Assembly (NCBI GenBank): GCA_043823085.1 | Contig: JBDRBE010000004.1 | Coordinates: 69,510-133,509 of the forward strand | Direction of reading: 5' to 3' | DNA from: Candidatus Levyibacteriota bacterium | GTDB lineage: Bacteria > Patescibacteriota > Microgenomatia > Levybacterales > UBA12049 | DNA length: 64,000 nucleotides | Part shown: positions 9,480 through 64,000 of the stretch, one piece after another | Layout: every line of letters begins with the position of its first letter | How positions within the stretch are numbered: position 1 is the stretch's first letter | Position numbers and translations under genes: made by a program | Notes under the pieces: model-generated | What the model was told of the DNA's origin: nothing | Seen by the model: the letters and a program-made list of their open reading frames with translations, nothing else | Databases searched by the model: none

Positions 9480-10541
9480 TTGGTCCAATTAATAAAAACA
9501 GTCGATCCAAAAGATCTTTTTACTAATTACCTTTACTTTTCTTCGGTCACAAAATCAATAGTAGATCATAGTAAAAAAACTTCAGCCTGTTTTATAGACA
9601 GATTCAAATTAAACCATTGTAATCTCGTTCTTGAAATTGGAAGCAACGATGGCGTTAATCTGCAATTCTATAAAGAAAAAGGGATGAACGTCCTGGGAAT
9701 TGACCCTGCAAAAAATATTGCAGAAATAGCCAATAAAAAAGGGATAAAAACAATTCCCGAGTTTTTTAACTTGGAATTGGCGAAAAAATTATCTTCGCAA
9801 GGGCTAAAAGCAGACTTGATTTATGGAGCTAATGTTTTTGCTCATGTTCCAAACATCGTAGATTTTGTAAAAGGTGTAAAAACTATCTTAAAAGATAACG
9901 GGACTTGCGTGTTTGAATTTCCTTATCTCAAGGGTTTACTTGAGAATAAATTTGACACTATTTATCATGAACATGTTTTTTATTATTCACTTATAGCATT
10001 AAAGAATTTATTTAATAAGGTAGATTTGGGAATATACGATGTTGAACAAATTCCAATGCAAGGTGGTTCACTTCGAATATTTATATCTCACAAAAAAAGG
10101 TTTAATGTTTCCCAAAATGTAAAAAAACTGCAGGAAAAAGAAATAAAAGAAAAATACAATAAGCTGGAAAGATATATGAAAATGGCAGAGGATGTTAATA
10201 ATTTAAAAAAAGAAACTATTAAATTTCTTAAAGATTTAAAAAGTAAAAATAAAAGTATCGCTGGGTATGGCGCTCCGGCAAAAGGAATAATTCTTCTTAA
10301 TTTTTTTAAAATAAGTAGATATCTTAACTATATTGTTGATAAATCTCCTGTAAAGCAAAATAAATATGTTCCGGGCATTCATTTTTTAATTTATTCTCCA
10401 TCCAAAATTAGGCAAGAAATACCCGACTACCTTTTTATTTTTCCGTGGAACATAAAAAGTGAGATATTGTCGGAATACTCCTGGTTTAAAAAACAAGGAG
10501 GAAAGTTTATTATTCCAATTCCCAGGCTACAAGTAATTTAA
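9480..10541 (+). CDS. Sugar C-methyltransferase body (TcaB9-like). True gene is probably 9332..10541 with a frameshift at the A10 tract.
   Basis: VLEIGSNDG SAM motif and YHEHVFYYS, paralogous to 934..2175. The upstream frame reads ..KKKKKIDLSIGFCPNCYLVQL, which completes the zinc ribbon. Confidence 0.7.
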   Translation: MVQLIKTVDPKDLFTNYLYFSSVTKSIVDHSKKTSACFIDRFKLNHCNLVLEIGSNDGVNLQFYKEKGMNVLGIDPAKNIAEIANKKGIKTIPEFFNLELAKKLSSQGLKADLIYGANVFAHVPNIVDFVKGVKTILKDNGTCVFEFPYLKGLLENKFDTIYHEHVFYYSLIALKNLFNKVDLGIYDVEQIPMQGGSLRIFISHKKRFNVSQNVKKLQEKEIKEKYNKLERYMKMAEDVNNLKKETIKFLKDLKSKNKSIAGYGAPAKGIILLNFFKISRYLNYIVDKSPVKQNKYVPGIHFLIYSPSKIRQEIPDYLFIFPWNIKSEILSEYSWFKKQGGKFIIPIPRLQVI

Positions 10542-10562
10542 CATGACACCTTTGTTAGAAAA

Positions 10563-11447
10563 ATGAAAGCGAATGTTATACAAAAAGAATTCCCTAATTT
10601 AAAAGTTTCTGTTTTATCAGTGGGAAAACATAAAAACAATCCTTTAAGAAATGAAGACGGATGGGTAGCAAAAGTAAATACGTTTGCAGTTATAGATGGT
10701 TCTGCTCCTCGTGTAGATTTAAGATTTGAAGGGAAAAGTAGTGCAAGATTTGCAACAGATGTGGTAAGAAAAGTTTTACTAACAACACCGCCGGATGTTA
10801 ATGGAAAAGAGTTAGTCTCAGAAATTACAACTGCTCTTAATAGAGAAATTAATAGAGAAGGCTATAGAAAGGTTATTCAAAAAAACAAAGAGGCAACTCC
10901 TGCGGCACTTTTTACAACCGCTCGAATTGTTGGAGATAAGGTTATCGTTACCGGGCTTGGGGATATTTCCTGTAGAATAAATGAGAAAGTAATTCACTCG
11001 GATCATTTCAAGTCGGAAGATTTGATGACAGAAAAAAGAATTTTGGCAATGAAAAACGCCAAAAAGAAAAATCCTTCAATTTCGGATGAAGAATTGGTTG
11101 CAATTGGCCAGAAGACAATAAAAGATGATTTAATATATCAGGTTAAAAATTACTTTAACAATTCAAATAGCGACTTAGGTCTTGGCATTATTGATGGGGA
11201 AGAAGTGCCGGAAAAATTCATAAAAGAGTACAAATATGATTTAAAAGATGTTAAAACATTGGAGTTATTTTCAGATGGCTATTATAGTTTCCCAGACTTT
11301 CCAAGTATTGATTTATGGGAAGAAAAATTTTTTCAAGGAGAAAAAGAAGATCCTTTAAGATGGAATAAATATCCGGCCGTTAAGGCAGTTCTTCCAGGTC
11401 AGTTTTCAGATGACAGAACAATTTTAATTGTTGCTTTCAATAAGTAG
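10563..11447 (+). CDS. PP2C-like (PPM fold) protein, possibly a degenerate phosphatase
   Basis: FAVIDGSAP, ARIVGDKVIVTGLGDIS and LFSDGYYS resemble PP2C motifs I, II and the C-terminal motif, but the canonical DGHGG is altered. Confidence 0.35.
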   Translation: MKANVIQKEFPNLKVSVLSVGKHKNNPLRNEDGWVAKVNTFAVIDGSAPRVDLRFEGKSSARFATDVVRKVLLTTPPDVNGKELVSEITTALNREINREGYRKVIQKNKEATPAALFTTARIVGDKVIVTGLGDISCRINEKVIHSDHFKSEDLMTEKRILAMKNAKKKNPSISDEELVAIGQKTIKDDLIYQVKNYFNNSNSDLGLGIIDGEEVPEKFIKEYKYDLKDVKTLELFSDGYYSFPDFPSIDLWEEKFFQGEKEDPLRWNKYPAVKAVLPGQFSDDRTILIVAFNK

Positions 11448-11453
11448 AAAAAA

Positions 11454-13820
11454 ATGAAGATACGATCACCTAAGATTATTTTAATAATAATAATTCTTCT
11501 TTTGACTATCATGCCTTTCTTTTGGCTTAAACCCGGCGAGATGGATTTAGGTGGCGATGGAGGCAGGCTTTACTTTTATGATCCGGTAAACCAGATTAAA
11601 AATTTGGCTTTATATAATAGGTGTGCTTTTGGTATAGGAACAATTGATTCTCCTTTTTCATACCTTCCTTTTATTGGAATACTGGCAATAATAAAGACAA
11701 TTGTTACGTCTTCGTATATTCTTATTTGTTTTCATAACGCATTAAAATTAGCTGTTGGTTTTCTTGCCGTTTATGCGATCGTAAAGCAGTTTATTGGCGG
11801 ATTTAATAAAAATAATTCCCTTGGTGTGGAACTTGCCTCAATGATTGCCGGGCTTTTTTATCTTTCCACCCCTGCGATGACGGAGAATTATGTAAAAGCT
11901 ATTGCAACTCATGATCAAGTATTTCTGAATCCTCTCATGTTTTACCTTTTATTGCGGTTTGCTCTTTCAGGAAAAATGAAATATATGTGGATTGCGCTTA
12001 TTGTAGGTCTTGTTTTTTCAGTGAGCTTTAGTTATATGGGCGCACCTTCCTTTTTTGCTTTTTACCCTCTTGCATTTATTTTTATTCTTTTCTATGGCAC
12101 TTTTATTAGGCATGTTAAGTTTCCATGGAGAAAATTACTGCTTACTTTTGTTTGGTTTTTTGGGCTGCATGCTTTTCATTTAATTCCTGAAGCTTCCGAT
12201 CTATTTACTTTTGGAAGCAATAGCAATACAAGAATGTTTAATATCGAAAGTATAACATCGCAAATCGGTTACTTTTATGCAATATTGCATATTCCAAAGA
12301 CGAGTTTTTATCTTTTCTCTTATTCCTTAACAAGATTTTTGGGACAAGTTGCCTTCGTTGTCCCTTTAATAGTTGTATTGGGATTGATATTTAATAAGAA
12401 GAAAGAAAAGACGATGCTTCTTGTTTTTGTATTCTTTTTAGTGACTTTCTTTTTTGTAACTGGGAAGGTAACGGTTGTTGGCATAAAAATTTATGAATGG
12501 TTTTTTCATGTGCCCGGCTTTTCAATGTTTCGAAATTTTTATGGGCAATGGCAATTTGTATATTATTTCTTTTATTCTCTTCTTTTTGGTTTGGCATTTT
12601 ATTCTGTGATATCTAGAATAAAGTCAAGAATCTTTTTAAAATGTCTTTTTCTGTTTCTGGTTATCTTTTTTACAATAAGCTCGTGGCAATTTATTAATGG
12701 AAGTCTTGTAAATCCATTTAGAGAAGATGCAAATGGGGTGAAAGCAGCAATTATTATGGATCCAAATTATGAAAACACGCTTAAATTTATTCGTTCAATG
12801 CCTGATGATGGAAAAATACTTGTTCTTCCTTTTAGCGATTCCTATATGCAAGTAATTCATGGATTAAATAACGGAGTCTACGTGGGACACTCGACAATTG
12901 GTCAGTTGACAGGAAAAAACGATTTTGCAGGTTATCAAGGCATTTTTCCCTATAGTGATACTTTTTGGCAATTAAGTAAAGAGAAAAACTATAAAGCGAT
13001 AAAAAAAATGTTTGGAATACTAAATATCCATTATATATTTTATAATTCTGACACAAGGATTTATGATACAGCATTTCCTGGTCGGCCATACTCGCCTAAT
13101 TATGTCCGAAAATTTATGCCTCCAGATCAGGCGGGGTATAAGGAATATATCGGAAACCTCTCGAGCGAAAAAATCTTTGAAAGCGGTTTTTATAGTGTTT
13201 ATAAGTTGGAAGATAAATCTTCGCTTCCTCATTTTTACACAGCCCAAAACATTCTTTTCTATAAAGATGATCCCAAATTGACAGGTTATGGAAAAACACT
13301 TGCCTTTTTTAAGGGAAATATTCCGGAAAGACCAGTTTATATAGAAAGTCAAAATTGCAAAAAATTGTTTAAGCAAGAGTTTTGTAGGGAAGATTCTAAT
13401 TTTCCAATGACTGATAGTCCAAAAATCCAATTCGAAAAAATTAATCCAACAAAATATAAATTAACTGTATCTAATGCAAATAACCCTTATATTCTCGTAT
13501 TCTCCGAAGCGTTTCACAGTAACTGGAAGATTTATGCCGGAGTTGCAAAAGAAAAGAATACATTCTTTGGTAAAGATATTTTTGAGACATTTAGTTTAAA
13601 CTCAATATCAAACGATAGACATTTTATTGCAAATGGTTATGCAAATGGTTGGTATATTAAACCGCAGGATTTAGGAGGAAAGCAAGAGTATGAACTTATA
13701 ATAGAAATGACAGGACAAAGAATATTCTATGTGAGTTTAATTTTTTCAGGCATTATATTCATAATCTTTGTTCTTCGGGGAATAATATTTTTTGATATAA
13801 TAAAAAAACGAAAAAAATGA
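11454..13820 (+). CDS. Polytopic membrane protein, YfhO-like architecture (putative GT-C glycosyltransferase), paralog A
   Basis: Many predicted TM helices. Conserved first-loop motif PFFWLKPGEMDLGGDGGRLYFYDP, a large extracytoplasmic domain, C-terminal NGYANGWYIKP, and a final TM anchor. Shared with 14139..17795. Confidence 0.6.
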   Translation: MKIRSPKIILIIIILLLTIMPFFWLKPGEMDLGGDGGRLYFYDPVNQIKNLALYNRCAFGIGTIDSPFSYLPFIGILAIIKTIVTSSYILICFHNALKLAVGFLAVYAIVKQFIGGFNKNNSLGVELASMIAGLFYLSTPAMTENYVKAIATHDQVFLNPLMFYLLLRFALSGKMKYMWIALIVGLVFSVSFSYMGAPSFFAFYPLAFIFILFYGTFIRHVKFPWRKLLLTFVWFFGLHAFHLIPEASDLFTFGSNSNTRMFNIESITSQIGYFYAILHIPKTSFYLFSYSLTRFLGQVAFVVPLIVVLGLIFNKKKEKTMLLVFVFFLVTFFFVTGKVTVVGIKIYEWFFHVPGFSMFRNFYGQWQFVYYFFYSLLFGLAFYSVISRIKSRIFLKCLFLFLVIFFTISSWQFINGSLVNPFREDANGVKAAIIMDPNYENTLKFIRSMPDDGKILVLPFSDSYMQVIHGLNNGVYVGHSTIGQLTGKNDFAGYQGIFPYSDTFWQLSKEKNYKAIKKMFGILNIHYIFYNSDTRIYDTAFPGRPYSPNYVRKFMPPDQAGYKEYIGNLSSEKIFESGFYSVYKLEDKSSLPHFYTAQNILFYKDDPKLTGYGKTLAFFKGNIPERPVYIESQNCKKLFKQEFCREDSNFPMTDSPKIQFEKINPTKYKLTVSNANNPYILVFSEAFHSNWKIYAGVAKEKNTFFGKDIFETFSLNSISNDRHFIANGYANGWYIKPQDLGGKQEYELIIEMTGQRIFYVSLIFSGIIFIIFVLRGIIFFDIIKKRKK

Positions 13821-14152
13821 AAATTACTATATTTTTTTTGAGGAAGTATAAATCAGTTATCATGACTTTGGTTGTGTTGGGAATTATTTCGGATATATTC
13901 TTGATTAGGTTTAAATCAGACTTAATTACGTTTGCGATTCTTGCATTGGTATTTTTTTCCTTTAAATTTTATAAAATTACGAGTAAGATGACGTTCCTTC
14001 TTGGTATTATTCCTACTGTCATTATTTTCCTTTACTTTCTTGTGGATTCAGAATCTCTTTTTGTCGAAAAGGCAGCTATTTGGCTTTTTTTACTATTAGG
14101 GTTAGGTATTATTCAGGAACTATTCATATCCAAAAAAAATGAAAAAATATAG
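13817..14152 (+). CDS. Small 4-TM membrane protein (GtrA-like flippase candidate)
   Basis: 111 aa with four hydrophobic segments. Paralogous to 33899..34249. Wedged between two YfhO-like genes with overlapping stop/start. Confidence 0.45.
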   Translation: MKITIFFLRKYKSVIMTLVVLGIISDIFLIRFKSDLITFAILALVFFSFKFYKITSKMTFLLGIIPTVIIFLYFLVDSESLFVEKAAIWLFLLLGLGIIQELFISKKNEKI

Positions 14153-17100
14153 ATTTGCAATTATTTTAGCAGTTATCCTATTTTTTATTCCATTTTTTTG
14201 GTTAAAACCCGGAGAAATGAATCTGGGTGGCGATTCGGGAAGACTTTATTTTTATGATCCTGGTTCGTATCTTAATTTACGCGTACTTTATAATTATTTA
14301 GGAAGCGGTAACGGCACAGAAATAATTTACTACACGCATTTTCCTTATGTTGCTCTGTTGTTCTTCATCAAACTCATTTTACAATCACCAACAATGCTTA
14401 TTTCTTTTTTTAATGGTCTTACCTTAAGCGTTGCATTCTTTTTTGTCTATCTTTTCGTAAAAGAACTCCTGAGTACAAATGAAAATTCAATTAAATCAGG
14501 ATTCGTTGAGATGTCTTCAATTCTTGCCGGTCTTTTTTACATCCTTTCGCAAATTTCTATTTATAGCGGTTGGGAGAGGCCAATTACTACTTTCAATCAA
14601 ATGTTTCTTAATCCTTTTATGGCATTTTTACTTCTAAAGTTTATGTTAACCCAAAAAAAAGAATATCTAATTTCAGCATTACTAGCAACATTTGTTTTTT
14701 CTGTAAACTTTTCTTTAGTTGGCGCCCCGCCATTTTTTGCTTTTTATCCAATAACAGTACTTTTCCTCTTTCTTTATGCGAAGTTGGTTAGGAAGGTATC
14801 TTTTAAATGGAAATCATTTGTTGCTGGTATAATTCTTTTTCTATTTTTACATGCCTTCCATTTAGTTAATACAATAGATGGTGTTTTCTCTCTTAGCTCC
14901 TCTTATAATTTGACAGTTTTTGCTCTGCAGGGTGAAGCTTCGCGTAATGGGCTTGATTATTTTATTTCTGTGGCGAGTAATATAAAAGCAAGTAGAATTT
15001 GGATGAGTCTTGCTCAGTTTCAAATACAGGCTTACTTTGCGATATTTATTATCTTTCCGGCAGTTTTAGTTGTTTCTTTTTTCCTAAATAAGGGAAAAAC
15101 GTTACTTTTTACAGGATTATTTTTTCTTATCGTTTTGTTCTTTGCTTCTGCAATTACTCAAACTGGCTTTTTCTTCTATAGACAATTGTTTTTAATACCC
15201 GGTTTTAATATGTTTCGTAATTTTCATGGACAGTGGTCATATGTTTTCTTTTTCTTTTACGCATTACTTTTTGGGCAAGCAATCGCCATCGTTGCAAACA
15301 AATCAAGCAAAAGAATCGCCTTGGCTATTTTTACTATTTCTAGCATGGTAATTATTGGGTTTGGCACACCGCTTTTTACAGGAAGTATCTCAATTCCGAT
15401 GGACGCGGAGAAGACAGTGCGTACTAGTTTTAAAATGGATCCAGCCTACGAGCAGGTCTTACAATACTTTAAATCAAATCTAGTTGATGGAAAGGTTCTG
15501 ATGTTTCCGCTAACAGACCATGGTTATCAAATCTTCAAGGGTAAAGAAGGTGGAGTTTATAAAGGGCTTCCGACAATTTCAATTTTAGATGATAAGTCGG
15601 ATTTTGGAGGATACGAAACATTGGGTCCATTTAAAGATATTTTTTTAACTTCCATCAAAAACAATGACTATGAAACTTTTAAAAAAATGCTTTCGGCGAT
15701 GAATATCAAATGGATATTCTATAATTCCGATCCATATATTTATGGCGAACCTTTTTTATCAACGTTGTATGGTTTTGTGTCAAATTACTCACCGAAAGAC
15801 CAACAAGAATATAAGTCATTTATCGAAAAGTTACCGATTAATAAATTAATTGATTTTGGAGAAAAATATCATATCTATTCGGTTAATGACGATATATATT
15901 TCCCTCATATTTATACTTCGACAGATATAGTGTTTACTACCAACCAAATTAATTTGATGTTCGATCCTGAATTTCAAAAAGATATGTATCGGACATTACT
16001 CCCTGTGGAAAGCTCTACAAGTAAAAAAGATTCTATGATTATCTATGGTTTACAAAAATCATTCTTAACCCAAATTAAAGACAATCGTCATTTTCATACA
16101 CATAATCCTTTTATTGGTAGAGCGCTTGATGATTTATTTTATCCGCTAGTAATAGTTAGGGAAAAATTTGATCTTGCTAGACTTAGAAATAAACCCGATC
16201 AGTATCTTGATTTTTCACTCTTTTTGCTTTCGAAAAGAATTCAAGAATTGAATCGTTTTGGAATAAATATGAAAGCCGGTCAGGGTTCTTGGCAAGAACC
16301 CTCCCCGTGGGATTTAAAGAGATGGTTTTCATATAATAGTTGGAATGCAAGCCTAGTGCGTTATGAAAACGCAGTGAATGCGATTATTGATTGGATTGAT
16401 AATTCTGATATTCCAGAAGAAAAGAAAATGCTTAATAAATTAAAAGTTAATGAACAGTTTTCTAAACATGAGCTTCACCTAATAAGTGATGTATATGATT
16501 TTAATAAAGAGGATAACGAAAAAAAATACCTACTTTCTGTTGTTAACAGAATGTTTGAAAGACTTTATAAGAAAGTAAACGTTACAGTTAGCGATCCTTC
16601 TTTATGTATGTATAAATTGCCGACTTTCACCAACCGCGAGGGAGAATATACAGTTTATTTTCGCGGAAAAAACATTCCAGACATTGATCAATCTCAGATA
16701 TTTACTAGGCTCGGAGATCAAACATCAAAAACTCAATTTGCAAACATTAGGGTTGATGAGAGGAGTGAAGCCCAAGTGATTTTAAAGATACCAGTTTCAA
16801 ACATTGTAAAAGAAGAAAAATGGAGTAGTAGCGGCGTCCCAATAGAAGGTTTGAATGGTATTACCTCGTTATCTTTTAGTAATGGATTAGGAGGTTCAAT
16901 AGATGGTCTTACTCTGCAAATTCCAAACTGGATACCGGATTATGCCTATCTTATTTCTTTTGACTATAATACCAATGGCGATGATTTTATTTTTTCATTT
17001 GCTGATAAAAAATCTTCAGAGAAGGCTTTTAAAAAGGTTAATCAAAGATTATTATTCGAAAAAAGATTAAATGCAAAAAATTTTAAGACCCATCAGTCAA

Positions 17101-49605: not shown

Positions 49606-50781
49606 ATGAGAATTGGAATTGACTGCCGTCTTTGGAATGAGTCGGGAGTGGGCCGCTATATCAGAAATCTTATTAAAAACTTACTTATTCAGGACAGTAA
49701 AAATAGTTATGTGTTGTTTGTCAATAGTTTAGATAGTGAAAATATCAAATATCAAATATCAAATATCAAATATGCAAATAAAAATTTAAAAATAATAACG
49801 ACCGACATAAGATGGCATTCTTTCAAAGAGCAATTAATTTTTCCGTCGATTTTAAATAAAGAGAATCTGGATTTGGTTCATTTTCCTTATTTTTCAGTTC
49901 CGATTTTTTATAATAAACCCTTTGTCGTAACAATTCACGATTTAATCATTAACCATTTTTCAACCGGTCTCGCCTCAACTCTATCAGCTCCTTTATATCA
50001 ATTAAAACTTCTTGGTTATAAATTTGTAATTTCACAGGCCGTAAAAAAAGCGAAAAAAGTTATTACTGTTTCAAATACTACAAAAGATGAAATTATCGAT
50101 CACTTTGGGGTCGATGATAAGAAGGTTATTGTGACGTACGAAGGCGTCGATAAGCAAAAATCAAAAATCAAAAATCAAAAATCAAAGATAGATAAACCAT
50201 ATTTTCTGTATGTTGGAAATGCATATCCGCATAAGAACCTCGAAAGATTACTTGAAGCATTTTGTTTATTTTGTCATCCTGAACTTGTTTCAGGATCTCA
50301 ATTGAACCGAGATTCTGACCTTCGTCAAAATGACACGAAATTAATTTTCGTTGGGAAGAATGATTATTTCTACGAAAGGCTAAAAAAGAGGGTTAATGAA
50401 ATGGGATTAAAGGATTCAGTTATTTTTTATGGGGAGGTAAGCGATGAAGAGTTAGTTTACCTTTACAAAAATGCAAAAGCTTTAGTTTTACCCTCTTTAA
50501 TGGAAGGGTTTGGTTTGCCGGCCCTTGAGGCAATGAGTTTGGGATGTTTAGTTTTGGCATCGGATATTCCTAGCTTTCGAGAAATTTGCCAGGACGCGGC
50601 AATTTATTTTAATCCTAACAATGTTAATGATCTGGCAAAAAAACTGAAAGAAATTTGCTTTAATGATTTAAATCATTTCAGCGATTTTATAAAGAAAGGA
50701 CGTGAAAGGGCAAGTTCATTTTCCTGGGGGAAAATGACCAAAAAAACTCTAGAAGTTTATGAAAGTTGCGGTAGTTTATGA
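49606..50781 (+). CDS. Glycosyltransferase family 4 (GT-B)
   Basis: MRIGIDCRLWNESGVGRYIRNL and MEGFGLPALEAMS. Carries (AAATATC)4-5 and (AAAAATC)4 at the same relative positions as the 40194 paralog. Confidence 0.75.
   Translation: MRIGIDCRLWNESGVGRYIRNLIKNLLIQDSKNSYVLFVNSLDSENIKYQISNIKYANKNLKIITTDIRWHSFKEQLIFPSILNKENLDLVHFPYFSVPIFYNKPFVVTIHDLIINHFSTGLASTLSAPLYQLKLLGYKFVISQAVKKAKKVITVSNTTKDEIIDHFGVDDKKVIVTYEGVDKQKSKIKNQKSKIDKPYFLYVGNAYPHKNLERLLEAFCLFCHPELVSGSQLNRDSDLRQNDTKLIFVGKNDYFYERLKKRVNEMGLKDSVIFYGEVSDEELVYLYKNAKALVLPSLMEGFGLPALEAMSLGCLVLASDIPSFREICQDAAIYFNPNNVNDLAKKLKEICFNDLNHFSDFIKKGRERASSFSWGKMTKKTLEVYESCGSL
49740..49774 (+). repeat. Tandem heptamer (AAATATC)x4 perfect, plus AAATATG
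   Basis: Read directly. Encodes NIKYQISNIKYAN. Confidence 0.9.
50156..50183 (+). repeat. Tandem heptamer (AAAAATC)x4 perfect
   Basis: Read directly. Encodes DKQKSKIKNQKSKID. Confidence 0.9.
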
Positions 50782-51943
50782 CAGAGTTAATAAGTGGGGA
50801 GGGGCCGAGAGGGTGCTTTTGGCACTTCATGAGTTATTTCCGGAAGCGCCGCTTTATACTTCTGTTTATAATTCAAAGACCGCACCTTGGGCAAAAGTTT
50901 TTCCAAAAGTAATTTTTTCATTTCTTCAAAAATTTCCATTTGCTACGCGTCATGAACTGTATGTCATGTTAATGCCTTTGGCTTTTGAAAAATTTTCCGC
51001 CAAAGGCGGATTCGATGAATTTGACTTGGTAATTTCGGTGACAAGTGAGGCGGCAAAAGGAATTATCACAAAAGAAGGAACTTTTCATCTTTGTTATTGT
51101 TTGACTCCGACTCGCTATCTCTGGAGCGGATATGAGGAATATTTTAAGAATTCATTGTTAAGATTTTTAGCAAAACCCGCAGTTTTTTATTTGCGAAGAT
51201 GGGATAAAATCGCAGCAAAAAGGCCGGATGCATATGTTGCGATTTCGAAAGAAGTGCAAAAAAGAATTAAAAAATATTATAAAAGGGAATCCACAGTAAT
51301 TTATCCTCCGTTAGCATTGCTTGGCGCTGAGGTCGTCCTTGCGGGTCCTGCCGCTCGTCAGCCCCACGCGTTTCCCACTGCGCTAACAAGCGCGGGGCCC
51401 CCGCGTGGTGCCCCCCGACTCGCGTCACCCGCAATGGACTCCCCGCGCCATAGCTATTTTCTTATTGTTTCAAGGCTAGTTCCGTACAAAAGGATTGATA
51501 TCGCAGTTGAGGCTTTTAACGAACTTGGTTTGCCGCTTAAAATTATTGGAATAGGATCTCAAGAAGCTAAATTAAAAAGAATGGCAAAAAGGAATATAGA
51601 ATTTTTAGGCAACTTGACGGATATAGAGCTCGTAAGCTATTATAAAAATTGTCGTGCTCTAATTTTTCCGGGGATTGAAGATTTTGGGCTGACGATAATT
51701 GAAGCGCAGAGTTTTGGAAAACCGGTCATTGCTTTTGCAAGTGGCGGAGCACGAGAAATAATAGTTGAGGGAAAAACCGGAGAATTTTTCTTCCCTCAAA
51801 CAAAAGCAGCGCTTGTTAAGAAACTAAAAGGGTTTCGCGATGATAAATACAAGGGTGAGGACTGTCTGAATCAGGCAAATAAATTTAATAAAAAAATTTT
51901 CAAAGAAAGAATATTGAAATTTATTAAGAGTAAGATAAAATAA
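50759..51943 (+). CDS. Glycosyltransferase family 4 (GT-B) carrying an in-frame GC-rich palindromic insertion
   Basis: MKVAVVYDRVNKWGGAERVL and ..YFLIVSRLVPYKRIDIAVEAF..GIEDFGLTIIEAQSFGKPVI. A roughly 45-aa Ala/Pro/Arg-rich segment replaces the usual short interdomain linker. Confidence 0.7.
   Translation: MKVAVVYDRVNKWGGAERVLLALHELFPEAPLYTSVYNSKTAPWAKVFPKVIFSFLQKFPFATRHELYVMLMPLAFEKFSAKGGFDEFDLVISVTSEAAKGIITKEGTFHLCYCLTPTRYLWSGYEEYFKNSLLRFLAKPAVFYLRRWDKIAAKRPDAYVAISKEVQKRIKKYYKRESTVIYPPLALLGAEVVLAGPAARQPHAFPTALTSAGPPRGAPRLASPAMDSPRHSYFLIVSRLVPYKRIDIAVEAFNELGLPLKIIGIGSQEAKLKRMAKRNIEFLGNLTDIELVSYYKNCRALIFPGIEDFGLTIIEAQSFGKPVIAFASGGAREIIVEGKTGEFFFPQTKAALVKKLKGFRDDKYKGEDCLNQANKFNKKIFKERILKFIKSKIK
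51321..51450 (+). repeat. GC-rich palindromic element (about 130 nt) inserted in-frame inside the GT4 gene
   Basis: Sharp local GC jump in an AT-rich gene. Nested inverted repeats ccacgcg/cgcgtgg, gcgcTAACAAgcgc and gcggggCccccgc. Confidence 0.6.
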
Positions 51944-60170: not shown

Positions 60171-60218
60171 AATATGACCCATTCGACAAACTCAGGGTCA
60201 TAGTGAATGAACTGAACT

Positions 60219-60500
60219 ATGAAAAAACCAGTATTTTTTTTAACATTTTTAATATTAATTGCAGTTTCCCTTACGATTGTTCAAATATTCGTTTCAAACA
60301 GAATATCAACGACAGGTTTAGTTTTGAGTAATTTTGAAGAAGAAGCAAATAATTACGAAAGAGAAAATTCTTTGCTAAAAGAAAAACTTTTGACAATTTC
60401 CTCTCTTAATTATATTGCATCGCAAGCAGGGCAATTAGGTTTTGTGGAAGATAAATCTAAGATTTTCTTGGTAGAACCGTTGCCTTTGGCTCGACAATGA
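60219..60500 (+). CDS. ftsL: Cell division protein FtsL-like (small bitopic membrane protein)
   Basis: 93 aa, single N-terminal TM, coiled-coil tail. Sits between rsmH and ftsI. Confidence 0.6.
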   Translation: MKKPVFFLTFLILIAVSLTIVQIFVSNRISTTGLVLSNFEEEANNYERENSLLKEKLLTISSLNYIASQAGQLGFVEDKSKIFLVEPLPLARQ

Positions 60501-62176
60501 CCGCAAGACTTCGTTTTACATTTATTTTTATTATTTTATTTTTTATATTGGTTATCGCGAGACTTTTTTATTGGCAAGTTGTTAAGGCGGAAGAATTATC
60601 CCTTTTGGGTAATTCTCAATACGGTGCTTTAGTGCAAGTACAGCCTCAGAGAGGAGAAATAAAAACTTCCGATAACTTTCCTATTGCTACAAACAAACTT
60701 TCTTATCTTGTTTATGCCAGCCCTTATGAGATAAAAGACAAAATAAAAACTGCAAGATTACTTTCTTCATTTTTGGAAATGGACAATGCATCAATTAGTG
60801 CAACTTTATCAATCAAGGAGCGTGTTTGGGTTCCGATTAAATCCAAAGTGGAAAATGATGTAAAAAACACAATAGAAGAACTAAAACTTCCGGGAATTGG
60901 ATTTTCCCAGGAATCAACACGATTTTATCCGGAAGCATCTCTTGCTGCAACTCTGGTTGGTTTTGTTGGTAAAAACGATGCAGGAGGCAAAAAGGGGTAT
61001 TCTGGTTTAGAAGGATATTATGACAGACAGCTTAAAGGGAAAGAAGGAGTAACCCTTGTAATTCATGATGCGCTTGGTAAGCCAATTCTTTCTAAAATGG
61101 TTGATACGGACACTGTGAATGGCAGAACGCTTATTCTAAATGTTGACCGTTCTATTCAATTTATGATAGAGAGAAAATTAAAAGACGGAATTGAAAAATA
61201 TGGCGCAAGTGGGGGAATGGTTGGGATTTTAGATCCAAAGACAGGTAATGTTTTGGCAATGGCCTCGTTTCCGTCTTTTGACCCGAGAAGCTACTACGAA
61301 TATTCGGAGGAATTTTATAGAAATCCTTTTTTATCCAATCTTTATGAGCCAGGTTCTACATTTAAATCTTTAGTTATGGCATCTGCCCTTGACGCCGGCG
61401 TTGTAAAACCGGAAACAAAATGTAATATCTGCGATAAACCAATTTCCATTGGCGAGTACGAAATAAAAACATGGGATAATAAATATCATAAAGATTTAAA
61501 CATGATTGATGTTATTAAATATTCTGACAATACTGGAATGGTTTTTGTGGCAAAGTCAATGGGAATAACTAAAATGCTTTCTTATCTTCATGAATTTGGC
61601 ATTGGAGAATTAACCGGCATTGATTTGCAAGGTGAGGTTTCCTCATATCTTAGGCCGGAAAACAAATGGTATCCGATAGATCTTGCCACACTTGGTTTTG
61701 GCCAGGGAATTTCTGTTACTCCTATTGAATTGTTAACTGCATTTTCTTCAATTGCCAATGAGGGGAAAATGATGGAGCCCCACGTTGTTTCCAAAATCGA
61801 AACTCCGGAAGGGAAGATGCTTTCAATAGCTCCAAAAGTTTTAAGTACGCCTATAAGTTCTAAAACTGCAAAAGTTATGACAGAAATTCTTGTTAATGCT
61901 GTCAGTAATGGCGAGGCAAAATGGGCAAAACCCAAAGGTTATCGGATTGCGGGAAAAACAGGAACTTCGCAAATTCCAATAGCAGGGCATTACGATTCAA
62001 ACAAAACAGTCGCTTCTTTTATTGGTTTTGCTCCGGCAGATAATCCGAAATTTGCGATGCTGGTAATTATTGACAGGCCGACAACGTCAATTTATGGCTC
62101 CGAAACTGCCGCGCCGATTTTCTTCGATATTGCCAAAGAGATTCTTAGCTACTACAAAATCCCACCGAGTGAATAA
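60497..62176 (+). CDS. ftsI: Penicillin-binding protein transpeptidase (FtsI-like class B PBP)
   Basis: N-terminal TM, STFK (SxxK), SDN (YSDNTG) and KTG (AGKTGTS) motifs. Confidence 0.85.
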   Translation: MTARLRFTFIFIILFFILVIARLFYWQVVKAEELSLLGNSQYGALVQVQPQRGEIKTSDNFPIATNKLSYLVYASPYEIKDKIKTARLLSSFLEMDNASISATLSIKERVWVPIKSKVENDVKNTIEELKLPGIGFSQESTRFYPEASLAATLVGFVGKNDAGGKKGYSGLEGYYDRQLKGKEGVTLVIHDALGKPILSKMVDTDTVNGRTLILNVDRSIQFMIERKLKDGIEKYGASGGMVGILDPKTGNVLAMASFPSFDPRSYYEYSEEFYRNPFLSNLYEPGSTFKSLVMASALDAGVVKPETKCNICDKPISIGEYEIKTWDNKYHKDLNMIDVIKYSDNTGMVFVAKSMGITKMLSYLHEFGIGELTGIDLQGEVSSYLRPENKWYPIDLATLGFGQGISVTPIELLTAFSSIANEGKMMEPHVVSKIETPEGKMLSIAPKVLSTPISSKTAKVMTEILVNAVSNGEAKWAKPKGYRIAGKTGTSQIPIAGHYDSNKTVASFIGFAPADNPKFAMLVIIDRPTTSIYGSETAAPIFFDIAKEILSYYKIPPSE

Positions 62177-62261
62177 TTTAATTGTTGAACGTCTTAATAT
62201 TATTATTCGTAAAACACACATTGTGCGACACTAACCTTTTGAAAATGTTATACTTATTAGT

Positions 62262-62699
62262 ATGGCAATAATTCTTCTATTGAAAATTGATGTTGCAAAA
62301 AGAGAGTTAGACCACGCAATAAAATTGTTTCTAAACGGTGGAGATATTGTTGCTATCCATCTTGTTATATCTGCTTGCCAAGAGATATTGGGAGCCATAG
62401 GAAGATCGGATAAAAGTATAAGGTCGGAACTTTTAAAAAGGGTAAAAAAAGAGAAGCAGAAGGAGGTTGTAAATAAGCTAAACGAAGCATATAACTTTTT
62501 CAAGCATGCAGATACGGATTCGGATAAGCTGTTAAAATTTAATCCTGACGCAAGTGAATTTGCTATATTTGATTCAATTGCAATGTATCAAGCCATTACT
62601 AGTGAAGCTACGGGTTTAATGCAAGCATTTCGTGTTTGGTTTTACTTGAAGCATTCTGACATTTTATTATACGAAGAACAGAAGACTTTGTTTAATTGA
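62262..62699 (+). CDS. Hypothetical protein inserted between ftsI and murE
   Basis: 145-aa ORF, no recognised motif. Followed by about 520 nt of GC-enriched non-coding DNA. Confidence 0.4.
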   Translation: MAIILLLKIDVAKRELDHAIKLFLNGGDIVAIHLVISACQEILGAIGRSDKSIRSELLKRVKKEKQKEVVNKLNEAYNFFKHADTDSDKLLKFNPDASEFAIFDSIAMYQAITSEATGLMQAFRVWFYLKHSDILLYEEQKTLFN

Positions 62700-63166
62700 T
62701 TTTAATGATAAGCAGTTTTTTTTAGAGCTTGCAGTTCAGTTGGAAGCGAAGCGTTCTGGTAATTAACATCTTCTTGAAGACTTAAAAAGGCAAATTTTCA
62801 TTTAGGTGCGTTTTAAGAAATTAGCTTTGGAAGTAGGGGATGACTTATAAATTCCCGCATTTTTGAGACACAGGAATTAAACTGCTTTATTCTGGATTAT
62901 CAAATCAATTTCCCCTAGGATCGTCCCCACAGCTCCACAGCTTCAAGGGTATTTGAAGAACTGCGTTATTCCCTTGTTTCGTTGTTTCATGGCCCCAGTG
63001 TCTCCAGTGTCTCTAGTGGCCCTAGTCGCTCCAAGATCCCAAAGGCCCAAAGGCCCCAGGTTCCAAGGCCAGGCTCCTTCGGATTTAATCCTCAGGATCT
63101 ATGACTTTCGTGTGTAGATATGCTTAGAACTGTCCGTACAAAAACGGATGGTGGTTTTTGGGGTAT

Positions 63167-63196
63167 TTGAAGAATTACACCGGAAAAAGGTATAAT
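63167..63196 (+). promoter_or_regulatory. Candidate sigma70-type promoter for murE (TTGAAG, 18-nt spacer, TATAAT)
   Basis: Read directly. The -35 hexamer lies inside a 14-nt direct repeat GGGTATTTGAAGAA that also occurs at 62947-62960. Confidence 0.4.
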
Positions 63197-63222
63197 ATAG
63201 AGATTACCTGCGACTTTTTTTT

Positions 63223-64000
63223 ATGTGGCAAGATATTAAAAATATATATCATCTTTTTAATGCTGTTTTGGCAAATGGTTTATATGGGTTTCCGTCCAGG
63301 AAATTGACCGTAATTGGGGTTACAGGGACAGACGGAAAGACCACAACTGTTAATTTAATTTATCATATTCTTCAAAAAGCAGGACGCCATGCTTCGATGA
63401 TTTCTTCAATTGGCGCAATTATTAATGGAAAAGCATCAGACATTGGTTTTCACGTAACTACGCCGTCTCCCTGGAGTCTGCAAAAATTTATTAAGAAAGC
63501 CAAAGGTTTTTTGGTTCTTGAAGTTACTTCGCATGCGCTTGATCAACACAGAGTTTGGGGGATAAAGTTTGATGTTGGAGTTTTGACAAATGTTACGCAT
63601 GAGCACCTAGATTACCACAAAACATATGAAAACTACGTCAGAACTAAATCTAGGCTGTTTGGGATGGCAAAAAAAGCAGTTATTAATAGAGATGATAAGT
63701 CGTTCAAAGCTCCCGCCTTCGCCCCTTCGACTCCGCTCAGGGCTTCGGCGGGCAAGCAAAATTCAAAGCTAATAACTTATGGCATGAGTAAGAGTGCGGA
63801 TTTAAACCCTCAAAATTTCCCTTTTGAGACAAAATTGCTTGGAGAGTTCAACCGGTATAATATTTTGGCTGCAGTTGGGGCGTGTAAAGCCTTAGGTTTA
63901 AGCGATAAAGAGATAAGAGAGGGAATTGAAGGTTTTGAAGCGCCAAAAGGAAGAGGAGAAATAGTTTATGAAAATAGTTTTTATGTGATGATAGATTTTG
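63223..64000 (+). CDS. murE: Mur ligase (UDP-N-acetylmuramoyl-tripeptide synthetase MurE-like), 3' partial, with an internal GC-rich insert
   Basis: VIGVTGTDGKTTT P-loop and LTNVTHEHLDYH. Open to the window end. Absent from the ORF track because it has no stop. Confidence 0.75.
   Translation, partial: MWQDIKNIYHLFNAVLANGLYGFPSRKLTVIGVTGTDGKTTTVNLIYHILQKAGRHASMISSIGAIINGKASDIGFHVTTPSPWSLQKFIKKAKGFLVLEVTSHALDQHRVWGIKFDVGVLTNVTHEHLDYHKTYENYVRTKSRLFGMAKKAVINRDDKSFKAPAFAPSTPLRASAGKQNSKLITYGMSKSADLNPQNFPFETKLLGEFNRYNILAAVGACKALGLSDKEIREGIEGFEAPKGRGEIVYENSFYVMIDF
63722..63771 (+). repeat. GC-rich palindromic 50-nt insert inside murE, flanked by the 9-nt direct repeat TTCAAAGCT
   Basis: cccgcc...ggcggg terminal inverted repeats. 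Direct repeats at 63713-63721 and 63772-63780. Encodes the Ala/Pro-rich APAFAPSTPLRASAGKQ. Confidence 0.5.

Follow-up and report, generated by a model that had tools for sequence, protein, structure and literature searches.

A probable mobile-element relic between ftsI and murE in a Levyibacteriota genome and its kinship with ftsZ-linked integrase islands

The division and cell wall (dcw) gene cluster of Candidatus Levyibacteriota bacterium GCA_043823085.1 is interrupted between ftsI and murE by about 1 kb of non-native DNA that lies in two layers. We examined this kilobase within a 64,000-nucleotide (nt) stretch of contig JBDRBE010000004.1 (positions 69,510 to 133,509 of the forward strand), here called the window, and consider it likely that it is decayed mobile-element debris, in effect a genomic fossil, from a family of elements that share a conserved end, called A-B, and normally integrate at the 3' end of ftsZ. 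An original prediction, made by eye from the sequence, had proposed either the remnant of an integrated element that brought its own promoter or a structured RNA locus; the remnant is supported by our data, and neither the imported promoter nor the RNA is.

We suggest that the first layer (62177-62946) represents the integrase-less right-end module of an integrative element family of the Microgenomates, which belong to the candidate phyla radiation (CPR). Such a module would be built from a small cargo gene, an arm (A) and a 30-nt core (B) reading IPAFLRxRN-stop, and an intact element would replace the codons of the essential FtsZ C-terminal peptide with its own copy. The copy in the window appears to be ectopic and decaying and is most likely no longer mobile, with no present function. 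The second layer (62961-63160) would be a separate GC-rich fragment of 200 nt whose arrival left a 14-nt duplication from the murE -35 region, both layers sitting just upstream of the native murE promoter.

The insertion and its native surroundings

The four closest relatives by FtsI (L148 to L151; 68-74% identity, one of them a complete 762-kb Levyibacteriota chromosome) share with the window the order glycosyltransferases, DUF4012, recO, aminoacyl-tRNA synthetase, mraZ, rsmH, ftsL, ftsI and murE. In all four, the called gap between ftsI and murE is only 43-51 nt, compared with 1046 nt in the window, and the insertion is therefore real; the same site is free of an insert in every one of these syntenic relatives, as expected if the predicted interruption of the cluster is correct. 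The 3' end of ftsI in the window (..YYKIPPSE-stop) is native-like when its C terminus is compared with those of the relatives.

The native spacer persists on the murE side of the insert. In three of the four relatives that lack the insert (L148, L149 and L150), murE is immediately preceded by a block of the form TTGRAGAAT..AAAAAGGTATAAT; the spacer there can be written TTGGAGAAT-N-AAAAAGGTATAAT-N-ATG, and positions 63161-63222 of the window read TTGAAGAAT...AAAAAGGTATAAT. The window spacer contains TTGAAG-N18-TATAAT at 63167-63196, and the original assignment of its -35 hexamer to the second copy of a 14-nt repeat (63161-63174) was correct. The conservation of the block in three relatives indicates that this promoter is ancestral and was not delivered by the insert, contrary to the notion of an element that carried its own. 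The insert parts murE from upstream dcw transcription and presumably persists because murE retains this conserved promoter. In L148, the spacer (11684-11770) is longer, with about 88 nt to the likely ATG, and holds a second promoter-like copy (CTTAAAGGTATAAGG); the ftsI-murE spacer seems to be prone to small duplications.

Kinship with integrase islands at ftsZ

Directly after a 145-amino-acid (aa) open reading frame (ORF) in the insert lie about 120 nt of conserved non-coding DNA (62762-62880), the A-B element. Homologues of this element were found at loci from other genomes and metagenomes (designated by L numbers), namely L001 (two copies and one with A only), L056 (two copies), L106, L108/L117, L152, L198 and L199/L201; the copies in L001, L056, L106, L108/L117 and L152 matched the window with nhmmer E values of 1e-12 to 1e-35. 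In L001, a Gottesmanbacteria locus, the A-B element follows a homologue of the ORF and then recurs twice more. Four independent loci, namely L001, L198, L199/L201 and the window, show this succession of ORF family member and A-B element. By both the nhmmer matches and this linkage, the ORF and the ~120 nt behind it are homologous to the right-end module of bona fide elements, the ftsZ-linked tyrosine-integrase islands described below. A gapped pattern, GACTTAAAAA-N60-85-TTTTTGAGAC, retrieved 112 metagenome stretches, and nhmmer confirmed only L056, L106, L108 and L117 among them; the remaining metagenome matches, five viral matches to the pattern and two viral matches to motif A were discarded as chance.

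Core B is a copy of the last nine codons and stop of ftsZ, with an in-frame TAA directly before it. It matches the real ftsZ 3' ends in L056, L001, L117, L152, L153 and L155, together with the distal, island-closing copies in those loci, and the final 30 nt of the L056 ftsZ gene themselves constitute a B-only copy (...DEFDIPAFLRQRN-stop). Nearly all of the 15 copies of core B that we compared, from ftsZ ends and distal positions, encode IPAFLRQRN/S-stop, and their differences are mainly synonymous (the core is also written ATCCCCGCATT and ATYCCCGCATT). Similarity to ftsZ sets in precisely with the Ile codon, both frame and stop being preserved, and the TAA just before the core is present in frame in all distal copies except that of L117.

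An ORF that follows one A-B copy in L056 encodes an integrase, assigned through the generic Pfam Phage_integrase domain (E 1e-31), with homologues in 293 CPR clusters at E<=1e-20, the best 120 listed being 64-92% identical. In all six loci fetched, the integrase gene lies 130-180 nt downstream of ftsZ. A full A-B copy occurs in L152 5.5 kb downstream of ftsZ, with housekeeping genes after it, and its core carries a genome-specific variant, ATCCCCGCATTCCT, that is the same as L152's own ftsZ end. In L155 to L157, a copy of core B 5.3 kb downstream of ftsZ closes an island (10001-15185) that carries the integrase gene together with genes for a replication initiator of the Phage_CRI type and a NYN nuclease, and in L117, a locus found by DNA pattern alone, the A-B copy lies 6 kb downstream of ftsZ. 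The genes between ftsZ and the conserved DUF2079-ileS pair differ in every genome. An att core had been predicted to show an integrase at ftsZ and the core again at the far end of the island, and this is what was found.

An integrase beside the 3' end of a gene and a repeat of the core at the far end together form the standard attL/attR signature of integration. Since the integrase follows ftsZ and the 30-nt core recurs 5-6 kb downstream, closing a variable island, we infer that A-B is a recombination site of the attR type, with core B as the att core and 62762-62850 as the P arm of an attP/attR site, and we take the related islands to be products of site-specific integration by a tyrosine integrase into the 3' end of ftsZ. 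Arm A holds a tandem TGTATTGA/TGTATTGG pair and TTGAAG motifs, which could be arm-type binding sites or a promoter; in relatives the arm also has a promoter-like TTGAAG..TATAAA. Integrase islands that occupy the 3' end of a conserved gene are already familiar, and the feature in the window would be a decayed example. Like the P4-like islands and others that use tRNA or tmRNA genes, the related loci have an integrase beside the target, a short direct repeat that closes a variable island and restores the frame and stop of the target, tandem arrays and integrase-less remnants; they differ in that the target is the 3' end of protein-coding ftsZ, with its conserved C-terminal peptide, rather than a tRNA gene, and the window copy differs further in lying away from the target gene with one core and no integrase.

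Several side observations concern these loci. A protein of the L155-L157 island is recorded on at least 24 contigs, and this island has the appearance of a small plasmid or a phage-like replicon that has become integrated. Beside ftsZ in L056 (4992-9614) and L001 (5844-8801) stand tandem integrase-less modules that each end in A-B. Those of L056 carry a DUF3800 gene and an ArsR/thioredoxin-like/permease set; in L001 the contents are the unnamed 173-aa protein, three small ORFs and a DNA-alkylation-repair gene with a frameshift. Stacked in this way, the modules recall an integron: as in integron cassettes, one to a few cargo genes and an end element of about 120 nt are repeated in tandem beside a tyrosine recombinase gene, whereas A-B has no attC-like hairpin, its core copies the end of a host gene, and the cassettes carry promoter-like sites. 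In L199 (about 2020-2040), the closest homologue of the window ORF (66% identity) is followed by an arm A variant of the window type; the similarity stops with AAATTCC, in the opening bases of core B, a boundary that could reflect either the site of crossover or another target. Directly after A-B and before polA in L108 (611-1251) and L117 (12672-13312) are genes for an AbrB/SpoVT-like antitoxin and a Fic/Doc-like toxin, families that were assigned by eye.

Organization of the inserted module

The coordinates of the insert and its flanks are given in Table 1. The 145-aa ORF, described originally as belonging to no recognizable family, did not reach threshold with any model of Pfam, NCBIfam or PADLOC, so that the claim holds for curated families; it is no orphan, given that a large unnamed family exists. 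A profile search returned 3203 clusters at 50% identity (E<=1e-3), and a genome scan placed relatives in Proteobacteria, Omnitrophota, Acidobacteria and other groups. Full-length members have 170-190 aa (about 175), the eight close homologues 171-185 aa, and the invariant motif of the family is YNFxKHAD. The missing C terminus of the window copy, its last 24 codons, can be read in the +1 frame at 62692-62766, and the protein repaired in this way aligns end to end with homologue P0002 at 63% identity. Some 17 nt have been lost near 62693, and the resulting frameshift removes the last helix, about 28 aa, of a protein whose homologue P0002 is modeled by AlphaFold2 (AF2) as all-helical (predicted local distance difference test [pLDDT] score of 76). 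The ORF is therefore best called a frameshifted pseudogene or truncated copy.

Table 1. Features of the ftsI-murE interval and its flanks, in window coordinates
Feature	Position	Strand	Basis
ftsI (PBP2-type transpeptidase), left native flank	60497-62176	+	Pfam PBP_dimer and Transpeptidase
Left junction and leader of the putative module	62177-62261	+	10-mer ATTGTGCGAC (62220-62229); promoter-like GCGACA-N18-TATACT at 62225-62254
Truncated 145-aa copy of a widespread unnamed all-alpha protein	62262-62699	+	Homologues, profile search, AF2 model of P0002
Frameshifted C-terminal tail of the ORF gene, LIDFNDKQFFLELAVQLEAKRSGN-stop	62692-62766	+	Six-frame translation, homologue alignment, two other assemblies
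Arm part of the A-B element, putative P arm	62762-62850	+	nhmmer matches, alignments; motif A TTCTTGAAGACTTAAAAA at 62771-62788, conserved middle ending CTTATAA
Core B, ATTCCCGCATTTTTGAGACACAGGAATTAA (IPAFLRHRN-stop), putative att core	62851-62880	+	Matches ftsZ 3' ends and distal copies
66-nt piece between core B and left direct repeat	62881-62946		CCACAGCT twice at 62927-62942
Left 14-mer, GGGTATTTGAAGAA	62947-62960	+	Exact direct repeat; duplicates native murE -35 region
GC-rich filler, about 52% GC, short tandem duplications	62961-63160	-	Collagen-like minus-strand reading
Native ftsI-murE spacer: right 14-mer (63161-63174), murE promoter, leader	63161-63222	+	Conserved in L148, L149 and L150
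murE, 5' part (leaves the window at 64000), right native flank	63223-64000	+	Pfam Mur_ligase_M, alignment with relatives

Upstream of the ORF, the 10-mer ATTGTGCGAC is shared with the central part of motif C, a palindrome (GTCGCATT..ATTGTRCGACGTT) that sits 550-900 nt upstream of A-B in L001, L056 and L152, and we tentatively regard it as a trace of that motif. Between core B and the left 14-mer, the 66-nt piece yielded no homologue in searches that included all fetched loci; together with TTGAAG in the adjoining 14-mer, its CTTCAA makes up a short inverted repeat.

The window copy is probably ectopic, because all other copies whose flanks extend far enough are found downstream of ftsZ. Integrase-less modules of the same build adjoin ftsZ in L001 and L056, which makes it plausible that a cassette was mobilized in trans, landed at a secondary site and then decayed. 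Secondary-site integration within the 3' end of ftsI itself (AAAATCCCACC versus AAATTCCCGC) was considered and rejected, as ftsI ends exactly as in the relatives.

A number of points weigh against the interpretation of the kilobase as element debris. An integrase in or next to the element, present in L056, L152 and L153 to L157, and core repeats at both ends, present in L152, L155 to L157, L117 and L056, are both missing here: the 64 kb contain no integrase homologue by tblastn, no ftsZ and only one core B. The left boundary of the module is supported only by the 10-nt match to motif C. The att role of A-B is deduced from repeat geometry, not from observed recombination, and A-B also has a promoter-like TTGAAG-N19-TATAAA, so that a regulatory role is possible. 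Taken alone, the strong conservation of the integrase family (65-92% identity) and its constant position beside ftsZ at the loci sampled could equally be those of a recombinase inherited vertically. Every residue that is invariant in its family is retained in the 145-aa ORF, which may still be partly functional. For the second layer, the collagen-like reading set out below draws on low-complexity sequence, and matches do not extend beyond 39-54 nt of repeat.

The GC-rich segment

The predicted deviation in composition is confirmed: the GC content of 62900-63100 is 52%, against a window mean of 33.2% (standard deviation, 4.4%), and it is exceeded at only one other place in the 64 kb. All of the internal direct repeats that had been listed are present, with the correction that the second 14-mer starts at 63161 and not, by an error of one, at 63160. 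The segment contains CCAGTGTCT 2.7 times (62995-63018) and CCCAAAGG 2.4 times (63038-63056), and four separate tandem duplications of 8-9 nt occur in the GC-rich part. The 14-mer is found exactly at 62947 and 63161, where 0.03 matches would be expected, and it brackets only the GC-rich 200 nt. The right copy belongs to the native -35 region, which makes the left one a duplicate of native sequence and the GC-rich part either a further insertion into the native spacer or the product of a duplication-mediated event there. An exact 14-nt repeat of native promoter sequence has the form of a target-site duplication such as that left by a miniature inverted-repeat transposable element or insertion sequence; 14 nt is long for a duplication made by a transposase, and neither a terminal inverted repeat nor another copy was detected in the window or in any locus.

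On the minus strand, about 62990-63085 reads PGA FGP LGS and, after a frameshift, GAT RAT RDT GDT GAM, a series of collagen-like Gly-X-Y (G-X-T) triplets broken by the frameshift and by stops. The 19-mer CCAGTGTCTCCAGTGTCTC occurs in 38 IMG/VR viral contigs, and in the one that was translated (L186) its complement codes for GDTGDTG runs. We think that 62961-63160 is probably a minus-strand fragment of a decayed collagen-like-repeat gene, in which case the GC excess would be due to its Gly, Pro, Ala and Thr codons. The GDTGDTGA and PGAFGPLGS runs resemble those of the collagen-like genes of phages, giant viruses and bacteria, but only some 30 codons are left, with a frameshift, stops and Gly-to-Arg changes, and there is no homology in flanking non-repeat sequence, so that common descent is not demonstrable. 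Homologues of the GC-rich part were sought by blastn and tblastn against phages, by blastn against plasmids, by an exact 22-mer in IMG/VR and by blastn against all fetched loci, and none was found. The plus strand was also considered as a decayed FtsZ linker and rejected, tblastn with five FtsZ proteins returning core B and noise only; an apparent FtsZ match (FDETK~FEELR) is explained by the 14-mer itself, that is, by native promoter sequence. A terminator-like plus-strand hairpin (63129-63152), with a T run behind it, concludes the segment shortly ahead of the murE promoter.

Alternative explanations

The module could be a live mini-cassette, functional and mobilizable in trans by an integrase from another part of the genome, that integrated at a secondary site in the ftsI-murE spacer and whose 145-aa protein is active, for example in defense of the HEPN/AbiV kind. 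We consider this unlikely, although integrase-less modules with intact A-B, both single and tandem, stand beside ftsZ in L001 and L056, the ORF has retained every invariant residue and a promoter-like site precedes it. Close homologues of the ORF adjoin Bro-N and NERD genes, which are typical mobile or defense contexts, and the family shares with the HEPN abortive-infection proteins (AbiV and the Apea-like HEPN) its small size, all-alpha fold, sporadic occurrence across phyla and frequent mobile contexts. The similarity in sequence and structure is faint: HEPN_Apea scored 15.5 bits against a cutoff of 24.4 in three of nine family members, AbiV and HEPN proteins were recurring but weak structural neighbors of the P0002 model (TM score, 0.42-0.47; Foldseek E>=2), and neither a PDB sequence search nor Foldseek gave anything significant. 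The likeness to HEPN thus falls below every threshold, the Rx4-6H motif is not evident in the family, which has YNFxKHAD instead, and no conserved partner accompanies it; a toxin-antitoxin-style partnership was rejected in its own right, with no conserved neighbor gene in 19 loci. Against a live cassette also stand the loss of the last helix by frameshift, a left end without a second core or hybrid att site, a native ftsI 3' end with no crossover inside it, and a 64-kb window free of integrase genes.

We give still less credence to the idea that A-B is a portable promoter, leader or small regulatory RNA carried along by accessory genes, its likeness to the end of ftsZ being incidental to its place of origin. 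A-B does lie upstream of a plus-strand gene in most loci (ArsR in L056 and L106, the integrase in L056, AbrB/Doc in L108/L117), it contains the TTGAAG-N19-TATAAA noted above, and its A and B ends can pair (CTTAAAAA/TTTTTGAG) in an alifold consensus. That consensus reaches only -3.7 kcal/mol, pairs only the termini, in mostly invariant pairs, and shows almost no covariation; folded as single-stranded DNA, the element reaches -8.6 kcal/mol (z +0.19), with no sign of the hairpin of an integron attC site, and it has no match in Rfam. An incidental likeness to ftsZ is further contradicted by the repetition of the core at ftsZ and at the far ends of islands, with genome-specific identity in L152, and by a homology that begins exactly at the Ile codon with frame and stop intact.

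That the non-coding stretch, especially 62900-63100, is a structured RNA is very improbable. The idea drew on a GC content of 52% in a 33% GC genome and can appeal to the terminator-like hairpin, but scanning, folding and covariation all failed to support it. At the gathering score, Rfam gave no match in the whole 64 kb, and at E<=10 on 62100-63300 only chance matches (rli36, CRISPR-DR33, a microRNA and others) of 11-18 bits, where 39-57 bits are needed. ARAGORN found no tRNA or tmRNA in the 64 kb, in agreement with what had been judged by eye; motif C is faintly tRNA-like, which led us to run ARAGORN on five related loci and Rfam on L001, L056 and L152, and nothing was found. The minimum free energy of 62881-63160 did not stand out from shuffled sequences on either strand (z +0.53 on the plus strand, -0.25 on the minus strand), the lack of homologues of the GC-rich part in any locus means that there is no conservation, and its sequence consists of 8-9-nt tandem duplications with triplet character.

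A chimera or misjoin in what is a metagenome-assembled genome, to which the end of a Logan contig at another GC-rich repeat, within murE and some 1 kb further downstream, might be taken to point, can be dismissed as scarcely credible: the Logan assemblies L004 and L005 (runs SRR27458547 and SRR27458548) are 100% identical to the window over 62690-63222 and call the 145-aa ORF identically, and the L004 contig runs from mraZ across the insert into murE, so that neither the insert nor the frameshift is a one-off assembly error.

Wider implications

For the window itself, the result is mostly clarifying, in that what interrupts a normally compact dcw cluster appears to be mobile-element debris rather than a novel RNA gene or a promoter brought in from outside. 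Of broader interest is the conserved family of tyrosine-integrase elements in CPR bacteria to which the relic led, with the 3' end of ftsZ as its apparent landing site. With some reservation, we put forward as a possibility that Microgenomates carry abundant, undescribed integrative elements that use the last 30 nt of ftsZ as att site and supply its C-terminal codons themselves, and that the right-end module is an autonomous, integrase-less cassette that stacks beside ftsZ and occasionally lands elsewhere in the division and cell wall cluster, as in the window. If this is true, the FtsZ tail that docks FtsA would be routinely swapped by mobile DNA in these reduced genomes. The islands also suggest that the protein-interaction tail of an essential division gene can serve as a crossover point. 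A limited literature search for ftsZ as attB or for integrative elements of CPR bacteria found nothing relevant, and both the ftsZ-tail target and the modular integrase-less cassettes appear to be undescribed in the literature searched. Because the mobile elements of CPR bacteria are poorly charted, a defined att site together with its integrase would provide a handle on islands, their cargo (defense, toxin-antitoxin and metal resistance genes) and their hosts in metagenomes. A large unnamed protein family is also flagged as recurrent mobile cargo.

Further observations in the window

Other short insert-like features were seen in the 64 kb. Within murE, an in-frame GC-rich insert of nine codons, APAFAPSTP, at 63709-63735 (within cccgcc..ggcggg) is absent from the MurE proteins of three relatives; in L149, gene calling splits murE into two ORFs at a point downstream of the matching position, and the Logan contig with the window sequence stops inside murE downstream of this insert. 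The intergenic region between rsmH and ftsL holds a perfect 7-bp inverted repeat, ATGACCC..GGGTCAT, around ttcgacaaactca (60174-60201), which resembles either a terminator or a short palindromic repeat unit. GC content in the 64 kb peaks (to 59.5%) at 51315-51450 in a glycosyltransferase gene (50759-51943), in an in-frame, GC-rich, partly palindromic insert that codes for ..LGAEVVLAGPAARQPHAFPTALTSAGPPRGAPRLASPAMDSPRH.. in a loop; the orthologues of L148, L150 and L151 have a far shorter loop there. In a neighboring glycosyltransferase gene (49606-50781), at about 50270-50340, the peptide ..CHPELVSGSQLNRDSDLRQNDT.. resembles a translated short repeat element, of a kind often inserted in frame in genes of CPR bacteria and Bacteroidota.

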